DNA of 64,000 nt, from positions 3,072-67,071 of the forward strand of contig CANRVY010000003.1 in NCBI GenBank assembly GCA_947643405.1. Reading direction: 5' to 3'. The stretch comes from an uncultured Mycoplasmatota bacterium. GTDB lineage: Bacteria; Bacillota_I; Bacilli_A; RF39; UBA660. The notes under the pieces are model-generated. The model saw only the letters and a program-made list of their open reading frames with translations, did no database searches and had not been told where the DNA came from. Every line of letters begins with the position of its first letter. Position 1 is the stretch's first letter. The position numbers and the translations under genes are program-made. Positions 5,340 to 11,944 of the stretch are shown here, one piece after another.

Positions 5340-5528
5340 CTACTTCTTATTTCCTAATAAGGTTATCACAATTAAAACAATAATGACAACCACTAATCCT
5401 ATGATAACATAATTCAAATTTGTCGCATTATTTGCATTTCCCGCAATAGCACCAACCTGCACTGTTAACGACTCTACTTGGCTATCTAATATTTTTAAAG
5501 CCTCTCCTTGAAACATCTCTAACTTCAT
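5340..5528 (-). CDS. Small membrane protein (62 aa) with a C-terminal TM helix
   Basis: GGAGG RBS 9 nt before the ATG at 5528. The C-terminus is hydrophobic (VIIGLVVVIIVLIVITLL). Confidence 0.5.
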   Translation of the reverse strand: MKLEMFQGEALKILDSQVESLTVQVGAIAGNANNATNLNYVIIGLVVVIIVLIVITLLGNKK

Positions 5529-7412: not shown

Positions 7413-7505
7413 TTTTAACCTCCTAACATTTTCTAAGACTCGCCTTTAAGGTACACAATGTGTTTAAAACCTATCTCAGTGCGGTTGTAGAGTGAGGCTC
7501 TACAC
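7413..7505 (-). promoter_or_regulatory. Putative L21-leader-type structured 5' UTR of the rplU-prp-rpmA operon
   Basis: A 100-nt untranslated leader containing GTAGAG...CTCTAC and AACACATTGTGT hairpins immediately upstream of the rplU RBS. Confidence 0.4.
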
Positions 7506-8861: not shown

Positions 8862-8941
8862 GGTATCACCTAAAAAAGTATATGTTTTTTTGCGCATGAT
8901 TAGAATATCTTTTTTAGAGCATATTAGAAATGGTGATTTCT

Positions 8942-9901
8942 ATGAAAATAAGACTTGGATATGTGGCAATTGCGAAAACAATAGATGACATTAGTTATAA
9001 TCACACCATTACTTATACTCATTACTCAAAACTTCAGGAAGAAGAACAATCAGCAAAATTGAAAAACATTATTCATACAAATTTAGACAATCTATTGGAA
9101 GTTTTAAAATACAATCTTCAAAATAAAATTTTCTTTTTTAGATTCAGTCACAATTTAATTCCTTTAGCTACACATAAAGAAGTCCATTTTGACTACATCA
9201 CACCTTTTTTAGAACAATGGCAAAAAATTGGCAATTTTATCAAGAAACATAACATGAGAATAGATTCTCATCCTGACCAATTCTGCGTATTAAATAGTGT
9301 CAATCAGGATATTGTAGAACAAAGTATCAAAATGTTAAAGTTTCAATACGACATTTATCAAGCAATAGGCATTGAAGGACATGTGGTATTACATATTGGA
9401 AGCAGCACTCTTAATAAGGAAAGTGCAATGAAACGGTTTCATGATACTTATAAAATGCTTCCTAAAGAAATTCAAAAAATGATTCTACTTGAAAACGATG
9501 ATAAAACTTTTACAGCCGAAGAAACTTTAAAATTATGTGAATTACTCCACATTCCTATGGTTTTAGATTATCATCATCATCTTTGCAATCATGAAAAAAA
9601 AGATATAAAACCAATTTTAGAACGTATTTTAAATACATGGAAAGATACATCTTTATCTCCTAAAATGCATTTTTCTTCTCCAAAAAGTCAAAAAGAAAAA
9701 AGAGCACACAATATAATTATTGATGCTCACAAATTCATTTCCTTTTTGAAAATCCTTTCCATTTATAATACCAATGTTGATATTATGTTAGAATGTAAAG
9801 GCAAAGATGAATCTTTATTTCGTTTATCTAGACAGCTTCGTTTTTATACAAAGTATAAATTCATAAATCAATCTACTTTTATCATAAATCCAAAATTATA
9901 A
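8942..9901 (+). CDS. uvdE: UV-damage endonuclease UvdE/UvsE
   Basis: Full-length resemblance to UVDE proteins (RLGYV..., FRFSHNLIPLATH, LENDDKTFTAEETL, HFSSPKS). GGTGAT RBS. Confidence 0.9.
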   Translation: MKIRLGYVAIAKTIDDISYNHTITYTHYSKLQEEEQSAKLKNIIHTNLDNLLEVLKYNLQNKIFFFRFSHNLIPLATHKEVHFDYITPFLEQWQKIGNFIKKHNMRIDSHPDQFCVLNSVNQDIVEQSIKMLKFQYDIYQAIGIEGHVVLHIGSSTLNKESAMKRFHDTYKMLPKEIQKMILLENDDKTFTAEETLKLCELLHIPMVLDYHHHLCNHEKKDIKPILERILNTWKDTSLSPKMHFSSPKSQKEKRAHNIIIDAHKFISFLKILSIYNTNVDIMLECKGKDESLFRLSRQLRFYTKYKFINQSTFIINPKL

Positions 9902-9939
9902 ATTTGCGCATACCGAATAAAATGTGTTATAATGTAATT

Positions 9940-10052
9940 ATGAGAGAACTCTCATAAAAAAACGGAGATACTTAATTATGAAATTAAGTACTGTCCTATC
10001 TTTTTTAATAGAACAAGCACGTTGTTTCAAGGTTGGTGCTTGTTTTTGTTTG
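9940..10052 (+). ncRNA. Candidate antitoxin-like small RNA (about 113 nt), copy 1; alternatively the mRNA of a 29-aa peptide MKLSTVLSFLIEQARCFKVGACFCLTKIP (9978-10067)
   Basis: Extended -10 promoter TGtTATAAT (9925-9933). The transcript would start at a perfect palindrome ATGAGAGAACTCTCAT (9940-9955). An intrinsic terminator AACAAGCAC-15 nt-GTGCTTGTT plus TTTGTTTG lies at 10012-10052, inside the short ORF. Confidence 0.4.
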
Positions 10053-10073
10053 ACCAAAATCCCCTGATAATTT

Positions 10074-10172
10074 TTAGTTATTTGTTAAGACAAATAATAC
10101 TAAAATAAATACTAAGACAACTTCTATAAAATTGATTACAATCAATGTTGATATGACATTATCTTTTCTCAT
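10074..10172 (-). CDS. Type I toxin-like small hydrophobic peptide (32 aa: MRKDNVISTLIVINFIEVVLVFILVLFVLTNN), copy 1
   Basis: AGGAGGGG RBS 12 nt upstream of the ATG. Charged N-terminus followed by a single TM helix. Perfect TTTACA-17-TATAAT promoter. Convergent with the sRNA candidate; the stop codons are 6 bp apart. Confidence 0.5.
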   Translation of the reverse strand: MRKDNVISTLIVINFIEVVLVFILVLFVLTNN

Positions 10173-10228
10173 ATTATCAAGCCCCTCCTAGAAGGACAGC
10201 ACAACGCAATTAAGTACTCCAGTTTATT

Positions 10229-10257
10229 ATTATAACTATTAGAATGTAATATGTAAA
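10229..10257 (-). promoter_or_regulatory. Sigma-A promoter of the toxin-like ORF (copy 1)
   Basis: On the minus strand, TTTACA (10252-10257), a 17-nt spacer, then TATAAT (10229-10234). Confidence 0.6.
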
Positions 10258-10444
10258 TATATTTTCATAAACTTTCAAACATTGTATTTTTGACTGATAA
10301 AAACCTATAAAATTATTCAATCATGAAATAGATTCCCTATTTTTCATTGTGTTTTATAACAGAATCTCTATTTCTAAATTCATTATTTTACATTTATTAA
10401 AAAGTCAGTTGTACAATAAACTAGATATATGTTATAATGTAACT

Positions 10445-10557
10445 ATGAGAGAACTCTCATAAAAAAACGGAGATACTTAATTATGAAATTAAGTACTGTC
10501 CTATCTTTTTTAATAGAACAAGCACGTTGTTTCAAGGTTGGTGCTTGTTTTTGTTTG
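10445..10557 (+). ncRNA. Candidate antitoxin-like small RNA, copy 2 (alternative 29-aa ORF at 10483-10572)
   Basis: Same promoter, 5' palindrome and internal terminator as copy 1, shifted by +505 bp. Confidence 0.4.
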
Positions 10558-10578
10558 ACCAAAATCCCCTGATAATTT

Positions 10579-10677
10579 TTAGTTATTTGTTAAGACAAAT
10601 AATACTAAAATAAATACTAAGACAACTTCTATAAAATTGATTACAATCAATGTTGATATGACATTATCTTTTCTCAT
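10579..10677 (-). CDS. Type I toxin-like small hydrophobic peptide (32 aa), copy 2
   Basis: Identical to 10074-10172 and carries its own promoter copy at 10734-10762. Confidence 0.5.
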   Translation of the reverse strand: MRKDNVISTLIVINFIEVVLVFILVLFVLTNN

Positions 10678-10733
10678 ATTATCAAGCCCCTCCTAGAAGG
10701 ACAGCACAACGCAATTAAGTACTCCAGTTTATT

Positions 10734-10762
10734 ATTATAACTATTAGAATGTAATATGTAAA
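10734..10762 (-). promoter_or_regulatory. Sigma-A promoter of the toxin-like ORF (copy 2)
   Basis: Identical TTTACA-17-TATAAT element. Confidence 0.6.
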
Positions 10763-10807
10763 TATATTTTCATAAACTTTCAAACATTGTATTTTTGATA
10801 CAAAAAA

Positions 10808-10840
10808 AGCGCTAATAATCCATTTTTATTAGCACTTTTT
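10808..10840. terminator. Bidirectional terminator between the repeat locus and the convergent DHHW gene
   Basis: GCGCTAAT...ATTAGCAC stem flanked by an A-run and a T-run. Confidence 0.6.
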
Positions 10841-10864
10841 TCTTTTTTATAAATATAATTTTCT

Positions 10865-11944
10865 TTAATCTTTTAACATAACGCTTTGATTAATCACCAT
10901 GGTACTATAAAGAAATAAAACATCTTGGTCTTCAAATGTAATGACTTCATTTAATTTAGAAGCTCCCATATATCGTAAATCAATGAGCGTAATTTTAGAA
11001 TAACTCTCTATTAATAATGGCGTTAAACTACTAGCAAAGGAATCCCTAAATATCACCAGTTCTCTTCCACTTTTATTTTTTTCATTTTGAATTGTTATAA
11101 AAGGTGTCGAACCAGATAAAAATACATTATAAGAATCCATTTTCCCAAGTTCTTTTAGATTATATACTTCATGGAAAGATAAATTTGTTTTATTTTCTAC
11201 AAAGGCTTGACTAATTACTTCATTTGTCAAATATGTTAATGTTTCTCCTTTTCCTCCAATTGCTGCTTGTCCATAGTAAACTCCATAAAAAGGTTTATAC
11301 TCTTGAAATTCATATTGATGATTAGAAACATTCCCAATCATTGTTTCTTCTAATCTACGTGCTACTGGAATAATTTTCTCTTGTTTCCAATGTGTATCTG
11401 TATCATAATAATGTTCTAAAGAAAGTAAGTCGCGCACTTCTATATAAGAAAGTTCTTTCATATTTTCTCTTACCAGTTTATATAAGTTCTCATAATCCAT
11501 TTTAAGATGCTCATCTTCTACATAATAATTTTTATCTGGAATTACCATATAATAAACATTCATTCCTTGCAAATATTTATCATAAATCTGATTTACTTTC
11601 TTTGTAAAAAGTTTTACATTTGTCTCTTTTAATGGATATTCTATTTTAAATATCTTATTATTTTTTATATAAATTCCATTATTGTCTAACTTTTGAAACA
11701 TAGAATATTCTACATTTGCTTTTAAACTTCGGAAGGTATTCCGAAATGGAAATTGGTCTAACGTATATGTTTCTAATTCTTTGAATGCACTTCCATCTAA
11801 TACAGTAGAAATCGTTATCTCTGGAAACTGTTTTAGATGCCTGCGTTCTTCAAACGATAGTTCTTCATCCTTCATGATAAAATTGAAAAGAAAGAATCCA
11901 TAAATGATACTTAAAAATAAAACAATTGTTACTTTTTCTTTCAT
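10865..11944 (-). CDS. DHHW-family protein (DltD/AlgJ-like SGNH acyl-transfer partner of the MBOAT)
   Basis: N-terminal TM anchor. DTHW motif (HYYDTDTHW). Directly downstream of the MBOAT gene. Confidence 0.7.
   Translation of the reverse strand: MKEKVTIVLFLSIIYGFFLFNFIMKDEELSFEERRHLKQFPEITISTVLDGSAFKELETYTLDQFPFRNTFRSLKANVEYSMFQKLDNNGIYIKNNKIFKIEYPLKETNVKLFTKKVNQIYDKYLQGMNVYYMVIPDKNYYVEDEHLKMDYENLYKLVRENMKELSYIEVRDLLSLEHYYDTDTHWKQEKIIPVARRLEETMIGNVSNHQYEFQEYKPFYGVYYGQAAIGGKGETLTYLTNEVISQAFVENKTNLSFHEVYNLKELGKMDSYNVFLSGSTPFITIQNEKNKSGRELVIFRDSFASSLTPLLIESYSKITLIDLRYMGASKLNEVITFEDQDVLFLYSTMVINQSVMLKD

Follow-up and report, generated by a model that had tools for sequence, protein, structure and literature searches.

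A 369-nt unit that occurs twice between the uvdE gene and a DHHW-family gene in a 64,000-nt stretch of DNA from an uncultured Mycoplasmatota bacterium (contig CANRVY010000003.1; below, the window, to whose numbering positions refer unless another contig is named) probably carries, in each copy, an autonomous and functional type I toxin-antitoxin module. Each copy combines a minus-strand gene for a 32-residue hydrophobic peptide with a convergent plus-strand unit for a small antisense RNA, and we use 'toxin' and 'antitoxin' for the roles that we infer for them. Comparison across lineages brings out coding constraint on the peptide gene, conserved promoters and terminators, and covarying helices; transcription, the involvement of nucleases and toxicity are what we infer. 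As read from its sequence, the module probably represents a new family within the type I class, with an mRNA logic like that of par and hok, and was met only in a handful of uncultured Bacilli of the gut type. The locus is a compact case with good comparative support, in which a 32-codon gene overlooked by most gene callers occurs together with two conserved promoters and a covarying 5'-3' closure of the mRNA.

The duplicated unit, its peptide gene and its predicted antisense RNA

The two copies lie at 9925-10293 and 10430-10798, offset by 505 nt. An earlier sequence-only reading of this DNA had reported a 369-bp unit present twice, 505 bp apart, and a direct check of the sequence agreed, revealing a single mismatch between the copies (9938, T/C). 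The repeat edges are sharp, the sequence between the copies (10294-10429) is unique, and no third copy was found within the 64-kb window, which is AT-rich (28% G+C). Both copies fall in the longest stretch of the window without an open reading frame (ORF) of at least 90 aa (9902-10864, 963 nt), and that reading had remarked that neither copy carries an annotated gene; the gap is flanked by the UvdE gene (8930-9901, plus strand) and the DHHW-family gene (10865-11944, minus strand). Two further assemblies of this species (L001 and L008) show the tandem duplication as well, which is thus not an artefact of the window.

Relatives were found by scanning species-representative genomes with a degenerate codon pattern of the peptide, and then by synteny via UvdE homologues. 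Their comparison, over six other lineages and strains, bears out most of the sequence-only reading and indicates that the minus-strand ORF, which has the strong ribosome-binding site claimed for it (Shine-Dalgarno sequence, SD, AGGAGGGG), is a real coding gene, since its length of 32 codons is kept, indels are absent, codon position 2 is nearly constant and replacements are conservative. The length is the same in all lineages with zero indels, and the flanking untranslated regions (UTRs) carry several. Differences at codon positions 1/2/3 number 5/0/8 between the window and L019, 3/0/9 between L018 and L019, and 12/1/9 between the window and L006; L018 and L019 are free of pattern bias because they were found by synteny. 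All amino-acid replacements between lineages stay within their residue class, which random placement of as many substitutions rarely achieves; over the whole ORF, simulation gave p=0.001 and <5e-5, and restriction to the unbiased codons 23-32 gave p=0.06 and 0.02. L007 and L019 have identical coding sequences and different UTRs.

The encoded peptide consists of MRKDN, a 24-residue hydrophobic stretch with a conserved Asn and Glu inside it, and TNN. The GRAVY (mean Kyte-Doolittle hydropathy) of the peptide is 1.55 overall and 2.95 in the transmembrane core, and it carries a net charge of 0. Residue 30 (10083-10085), at the C-terminal edge of the hydrophobic stretch, is the sole non-conservative variable position: the window has Thr there, and the two L008 copies (813-908 and 1318-1413 of that contig) have Lys and Ile. 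The toxin promoter had been described as a perfect TTTACA-17-TATAAT; the element is present at that place, with a score of 11/12 and a -35 hexamer that matches the consensus at only 5/6 positions. Across five lineages its hexamers are invariant and its spacers differ, giving the form TTTACA-N17/18-TATAAT. An overlapping 39-aa ORF on the minus strand and a 28-aa ORF on the plus strand are not conserved and were rejected as genes.

The plus-strand unit is, by its conservation, a non-coding RNA with its own conserved promoter and terminator, and its transcript is a predicted one. Six lineages share the TG and TATAAT of its promoter without any change, and have T, C, A or G as the middle base. The sequence-only reading had favoured a non-coding role for this unit while noting a 29-codon ORF with its ATG in a hairpin loop, an arrangement that a direct check of the sequence found as described. 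The ORF is cut to 10 codons in L001 and in L008 copy 2, has no ATG in L007 and lies in another frame in L006; it was therefore rejected as a peptide gene, and its lack of conservation argues for a non-coding RNA.

Three hairpins, H1 to H3, structure this RNA (Table 1). The 16-nt repeat at the transcript start, previously called a perfect palindrome, is present as a 7+2+7 inverted repeat (H1), whose seventh pair is G.C, G.U or A.U among the window, L010 and L018, and which is absent in L006. The stem and U-tract terminator described at the other end was likewise found, with an invariant stem (H3). It has the arms AACAAGCAC and GTGCTTGTT followed by TTTGTTTG, folds with -13.3 kcal/mol, has no U-tract on the minus strand, and was missed by a simple terminator scan because of the size of its loop. 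The H3 stem with its flanks (28 nt) is constant in 11 of 11 sequences, with a variable loop, and is unchanged even in L006, where overall identity is ~76%. Such constancy exceeds the need of a terminator stem, and may mark a recognition or processing site. The invariant nucleotides are TAGAACAAGCAC and GTGCTTGTTTTTGTTT, at 10009-10020 and 10036-10051 (+505 in copy 2). A shorter antisense RNA, ending past H2 near 10006, is possible. In a structure count on the antisense RNA alignment (A6), 96.5% of cells were paired, compared with 38-48% when partners were slid; one H2 pair passes from A.U to G.C by way of G.U, and this intermediate is a pair in the plus-strand RNA alone.

Predicted closed fold of the toxin mRNA and its overlap with the antisense RNA

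The toxin mRNA most likely runs through to the terminator H2 at 9964-9996, as judged from its sequence elements. H2 lies between an A7 tract (9956-9962) and a U-rich tract, and its fold has -10.7 kcal/mol on the plus strand and -12.7 kcal/mol on the minus strand. A minus-strand U-tract follows H2 in all lineages; the U7 after H2, together with the lack of a minus-strand U-tract at H3, marks H2 as a bidirectional terminator, at which the mRNA likely has its 3' end.

In the computed fold of the predicted mRNA, both H2 arms pair with the toxin 5' UTR, forming helices A and B. This 5'-3' closure is part of the minimum free energy (MFE) fold of the full-length mRNA in five of five lineages, with 15-26 pairs and a mean probability of 0.80-0.98, and helix B (nt 21-30 with the 5' arm of H2) belongs to the MFE fold in most lineages. 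In a cross-lineage matrix, the 5' end paired most strongly with its own 3' UTR in four of five rows, always at the extreme 3' end. Shuffling gave p = 0.03, 0.009, 0.0185, 0.0025 and 0.0075 for the closure (four lineages and L008 copy 2). The sequence-only reading had rightly placed the meeting of the antisense RNA with the toxin mRNA in the 3' region, and had missed this dominant, conserved 5'-3' pairing.

The modelled pairing of the toxin mRNA 5' UTR with its own 3' end, with compensatory changes, is supported by covariation. A structure count on alignment A4 found 98.4% of cells paired, compared with 33-46% with slid partners. In each of helices A, B and D one pair had changed on both sides, and 1 of 500 shuffles reached this total of three. 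The count under-reports compensatory changes in helix A because MAFFT puts the ends of L006 out of structural register; a fuller list was obtained by inspecting RNAduplex output by eye. By such inspection, helix A shows G.C to A.U and A.U to G.C changes between the window and L007, and in L006 at least 6 of its pairs have both partners changed. Copy 2 of L008 combines a 5' C1 to G change with a 3' G to A change, 260 nt apart, which lengthen helix A by 2 bp. Helix B has -16 to -20.7 kcal/mol in all lineages and a C.G to U.A change in L006, and helix D is retained in all lineages, with U.A to C.G in L006. Within L006, H2 alone is weak (-4.9 kcal/mol), and helices A and B are strong (about -20 kcal/mol each). 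G to A changes on the SD strand of helix C, in L002, L008 copy 2 and the L007/L018/L019 group, turn U.G into U.A pairs.

The two units converge as had been described, with the stop codons of the two ORFs 6 bp apart and promoters conserved across lineages. The expectation that the antisense RNA would pair with the 3' region of the toxin mRNA was borne out by perfect complementarity to ~96 nt of the toxin 3' UTR (9957-10052), a stretch that includes the 3' strands of helices A and B. This RNA reaches past the predicted end of the mRNA. With its tail ending at 10052, it stays 21 nt short of the ORF, whose stop codon begins at 10074; given the predicted mRNA end at H2, the overlap is confined to the 3' UTR.

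In the proposed mechanism, a strong promoter of the sigma-A type would drive a ~267-nt minus-strand mRNA encoding the 32-residue single-pass membrane peptide. Once transcription is done, the first ~30 nt of the mRNA would pair with both H2 arms through helices A and B, helix D would join the SD-AUG segment to sequence past the stop codon, and helix C could hold the SD locally, yielding a closed, poorly translatable mRNA with protected ends. The extended -10 promoter on the plus strand would yield the ~113-nt non-coding RNA with H1, H2 and H3. Binding of this RNA to the 3' UTR would open the closed fold, expose the mRNA 5' end and form a long duplex, and the duplex and the exposed end would lead to decay by RNase III and 5'-end-dependent nucleases, so that no peptide is made. 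If the antisense level dropped, the stable mRNA would be translated and the peptide would harm the membrane.

Decay triggered by the duplex and by exposure of the 5' end is the route that we favour from the modelling, because nt 1-6 of the mRNA are predicted to become more exposed in four of five lineages when the 3' UTR is masked, while the shift in SD accessibility is inconsistent; a translational switch acting through the SD is unsupported. A fuller proposal, which is possible but doubtful, would make the module an undescribed type I family, restricted to one small clade of uncultured Tenericutes-labelled Bacilli and with a regulatory logic that has yet to be documented, in which the whole 5' UTR is locked on the terminator arms, the antitoxin pries this lock open at its 3' partner rather than masking the ribosome-binding site, and H3 serves as a recognition or processing site. 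Prying the lock open would make the 5' end accessible to 5'-dependent nucleases and provide a substrate for RNase III. The locus thus offers a testable model of a 3'-bound antisense RNA controlling an mRNA whose 5' end hides there.

Relatives, database searches and known systems

Contigs of the same species (97-98% identity) carry either two copies (L001, L008) or one (L002:5430-5888, L004:4814-5271, L005:4814-5271 and L009:3290-3727). Beyond the species, the module was found at the same uvdE-proximal site in L007, whose flanks are ~85% identical to the window, in L019 and L018, and in a decayed form in L010. In L006 a ~76% identical module stands in another context, beside radical-SAM and Fic genes; a second contig of the same metagenome-assembled genome (MAG), L012, keeps the L27-Prp-L21-M50-M23-UvdE synteny without a module after uvdE. 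No module was found at the uvdE site in L014-L017 (UvdE 83% identical), L011 (76%) or L013 (68%), the last of which has an MBOAT-DHHW operon without the module. The source records of the module MAGs read 'uncultured Tenericutes bacterium' or 'uncultured Bacilli bacterium'. The MAG of L006 and L012 (CAYYCR010000121.1, CAYYCR010000098.1) is labelled 'uncultured Muribaculaceae'; L006 has a G+C content of ~26.5% and L012 has Bacilli-type synteny, and this MAG is probably mislabelled or a mixed bin.

In L010 (UvdE 81% identical; 2452-2715), the antisense unit is intact and the ORF is a start-less remnant (…TLILCNFVIVILSLFNL*), the toxin 5' half, SD and promoter having been replaced by a plus-strand DUF1016_N gene (Pfam E=1.1e-33). 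Within the species, comparison of 9996-10040 of the window with L001:7066-7115 and L008:934-1063 and 1439-1567 revealed two allele types of the antisense unit, told apart by a deletion of 1 nt, a change of AA to GG and an insertion of 2 nt in the loop. The window and L001 each have two identical copies, of one type in the former and of the other in the latter, and L008 has one copy of each type, a pattern that indicates concerted evolution of the copies via gene conversion. The single copy of L009 has the variants of L008 copy 1 in its left half and those of copy 2 in its right half. This chimera would reflect either unequal crossover, by which single-copy forms would arise, or collapse in assembly. 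The patchiness of the module among close relatives, the tandem duplicate, the shifted context and the loss of the toxin half are typical of type I modules. The natural variants, with one copy, two copies or a toxin-less copy, are ready material for experiments.

Database searches gave no relative of the peptide. No match was found in Pfam, NCBIfam (E up to 10) or PADLOC, PHROGs gave one meaningless match (E=0.18), and an exhaustive HMMER search of 1.84 billion representative proteins returned only the identical sequence, whose cluster has one member; a 64-aa concatenate of two peptide variants had no match either. In Rfam, the module region gave none at gathering score; permissive matches were chance (E >=3), the best being the unrelated GibS with 20.8 bits against 115. 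Blastn against 72,556 plasmids and 50,697 phages was without a match, and two viral-contig scans found nothing. A metagenome scan with a relaxed peptide pattern also gave nothing, and one with the H3 pattern gave only one further contig, of the same species. A literature search found no paper reporting a toxin-antitoxin system of type I in Tenericutes or Mollicutes.

Two features of the type I class are present, namely a small (<60 aa) hydrophobic peptide on a short mRNA (32 aa, ~267 nt predicted), and a complementary gene for a non-coding antisense RNA, whose transcript is predicted. The sequence-only reading had likened the locus to txpA/RatA, bsrG/SR4 and fst; the convergent arrangement and the complementarity at the 3' end hold, while the peptide falls outside those families. 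It belongs to none of the families that had been named for comparison (Fst/Ldr, TxpA/BsrG, YonT), consistent with the empty Pfam and NCBIfam searches. The locus combines traits of par, of hok/aapA1 and of the Bacillus subtilis systems with 3' overlap, and could seed a covariance model for annotating the family.

In its sequence layout, the architecture is closest to par of pAD1 (Fst/RNA II). This system and SprA1/SprA1as likewise have convergent promoters and a bidirectional terminator with shared complementary stem-loops, and in par the antisense RNA also overlaps the 3' UTR only and not the ORF, and the hydrophobic toxin peptide has ~33 residues (PMC7472228, PMC8594479). In par RNA I, a 5' stem-loop (5'-SL) sequesters the SD, as helix C would, and an upstream helix (5'-UH) hides the 5' end, as helices A and B would (PMC7472228). 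Unlike Fst/Ldr, the five peptide variants contain no W, G or P, and hence no PXXXG, end in TNN, TNY or THY without a charged C-terminus, and match no Pfam or NCBIfam family. Unlike in par, DRa/DRb-type complementarity to the start region is not conserved here, the ~96-nt overlap holds a second terminator that acts on the plus strand only (H3), and the 5' end pairs with the arms of the terminator itself rather than with a segment upstream of it.

The B. subtilis systems txpA/RatA, bsrG/SR4, bsrE/SR5 and yonT/SR6 similarly have convergent cis antisense RNAs of at least ~100 nt with 3' complementarity and hold the SD in a local helix; duplex-triggered decay is expected for them, and a structural effect on the SD is possible (PMC3834814, PMC3531473, PMC8594479). 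SR4 is a 3'-overlapping antitoxin (PMC3834814), and the antisense RNAs of the TxpA/RatA- and BsrG/SR4-type families extend into the 3' end of the toxin ORF as well (PMC8594479), whereas the one here stops short of the stop codon. The locus further differs in having no Rfam antitoxin match, a shorter peptide and no charged tail, and modelling showed no consistent tightening of an SD helix of the kind exerted by SR4.

In hok/Sok and aapA1/IsoA1, as here, the full-length toxin mRNA is closed 5'-3' with covariation, and in those two systems the closed fold yields a stable mRNA that is translationally inert (PMC5416894; hok cited therein). Full-length aapA1 mRNA is translationally inert (PMC5416894). 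Both are Gram-negative systems in which the antisense RNA acts at the 5' region or leader and the mRNA is activated by 3' trimming. In contrast, the antisense RNA here lies at the 3' end and hits the 3' partner of the closing helix, so that its binding should open the fold rather than await its opening.

Weighing the alternatives

Several observations count against a functional toxin-antitoxin module. Toxicity and transcription of the candidate are predictions from sequence, and the transcript ends are predicted from consensus elements. The peptide has no homology link to a proven toxin, and is without the charged tail that Gram-positive type I toxins commonly have at the C-terminus. The codon pattern of the peptide, by which L006 and L007 were detected, biases their first 22 codons. 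The diverged lineages number only ~5, several of them closely related, and the covariation counts are small for this reason; H3 gives no covariation evidence because its stem never varies, and helix A of L019, taken alone, is not significant against shuffles (p=0.22). The inconsistent modelling of SD accessibility on masking of the 3' UTR belongs here as well.

The main alternative, which we regard as unlikely, is a genuine small membrane protein without toxicity, such as a modulator of an enzyme or transporter, whose expression is tuned by the same antisense RNA and mRNA fold. Coding constraint is silent on toxicity, and a net charge of 0, the missing charged tail and the lack of homology to any proven toxin would suit such a protein. 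The position of the module downstream of the MBOAT-DHHW operon in the window also speaks for it, but no neighbour is fixed, given the radical-SAM and Fic genes beside the L006 module and the L013 operon without a module. The patchy distribution, the tandem duplication, the loss of the peptide half in L010 where the antisense half was kept, and the multi-layer translational locking fit a toxin-antitoxin system, and not a housekeeping small protein.

Less likely again is a type I module that acts like par or SprA1/SprA1as, with H1 pairing the start-codon region and blocking the ribosome, and with the 3' overlap as first contact. The par architecture of convergent promoters, bidirectional terminator, 5' stem-loop and 5' upstream helix (PMC7472228) would accommodate this action. 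The 3' half of H1, (U)UCUCAUA (9949-9956), complements UAUGAGA(A) over the toxin start (10166-10173), a match present in the window, L007, L018 and L019 that is not significant against shuffles, and L006 is without any H1. In the species of the window, 11 nt of the plus-strand RNA perfectly complement the toxin 5' UTR, but the longest complementary word between this RNA and the start region falls from 11 to 8 to 6 nt across lineages, and dinucleotide shuffles of the translation-initiation region in three lineages gave p=0.049, 0.18 and 0.42. Pairing between the toxin 5' end and the plus-strand RNA falls from -14.0 kcal/mol to -8.1 (L007) and -6.6 kcal/mol (L006), whereas pairing of the 5' end with its own 3' end is kept in both. 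Pairing of the par DR type was rejected as a conserved interaction, as it does not rise above shuffles beyond the species of the window.

That the repeats hold no gene module, being duplicated terminators, a structured spacer or a fragment of an insertion sequence, prophage or plasmid, is very improbable: H2 and H3 could stop read-through from uvdE and the repeat edges are sharp, but differences within the ORF follow a codon-position periodicity and its replacements are class-conservative, the two promoters stay conserved around spacers that vary, H3 is retained in L006 with no plus-strand gene upstream of it, neither a transposase nor terminal inverted repeats were found at the repeats, and the plasmid, phage and viral-contig searches lent nothing to the known mobile-element fragment that the sequence-only reading had named as a refuting case.

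Table 1 Predicted features of the duplicated unit in window coordinates
Feature	Copy 1	Copy 2	Strand	Basis or remark
Extended -10 promoter of antisense RNA, TGTTATAAT	9925-9933	10430-10438	+	invariant TGnTATAAT
Predicted antisense (antitoxin-like) RNA, ~113 nt	9940-10052	10445-10557	+	conserved promoter and terminator; copies identical
H1, 5'-terminal hairpin, ATGAGAG-AA-CTCTCAT	9940-9955		+	seventh pair varies
H2, bidirectional terminator hairpin, predicted toxin mRNA 3' end	9964-9996		both
H3, intrinsic terminator, 9-11 bp stem, 15-nt loop, TTTGTTTG tail	10012-10052		+
Predicted toxin mRNA, ~267 nt	9956-10222	10461-10727	-	presumed start 7 nt past -10, end at U7; copies identical
32-codon ORF, toxin candidate, MRKDNVISTLIVINFIEVVLVFILVLFVLTNN	10074-10172	10579-10677	-	coding constraint across lineages (copy 1); ORF list (copy 2)
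Toxin promoter, TTTACA-17-TATAAT	10229-10257	10734-10762	-	11/12 consensus score
Helix A, 5' strand (mRNA nt 2-16)	10207-10221		-	partner 9963-9978
Helix A, 3' strand, 3' arm of H2 right before the U-tract	9963-9978		-
Helix B, 5' strand, GUGCUGUCCU, with anti-SD GUCC	10193-10202		-	partner 9988-9997
Helix B, 3' strand, 5' arm of H2	9988-9997		-
Helix C, SD-sequestering hairpin, GUCCUUC-UAG-GAGGGGC	10181-10197		-	SD at 10182-10189
Helix D, 5' strand, between SD and AUG	10173-10180		-	partner 10064-10071
Helix D, 3' strand, just past the stop codon	10064-10071		-
Spacer between the copies	10294-10429			unique; holds -35-like TGTACA (10410-10415) of the copy-2 antisense promoter

Between copy 2 and the DHHW-family gene, an A-tract, a hairpin and a T-tract (AAAAAGCGCTAATAA...TTATTAGCACTTTTTT, 10804-10842) resemble a further bidirectional terminator, one that would shield the module from the MBOAT-DHHW operon. 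The sole Rfam family in the window at gathering score is a ribosomal protein L21 leader (RF00559, 45.1 bits; 7426-7496, minus strand), upstream of the L21-Prp-L27 genes. A 62-aa ORF at 5340-5528 (minus strand), unrelated to the module, has a C-terminal transmembrane stretch and a good SD, and is called as a gene of 62 aa in the L001, L013 and L014 contigs.

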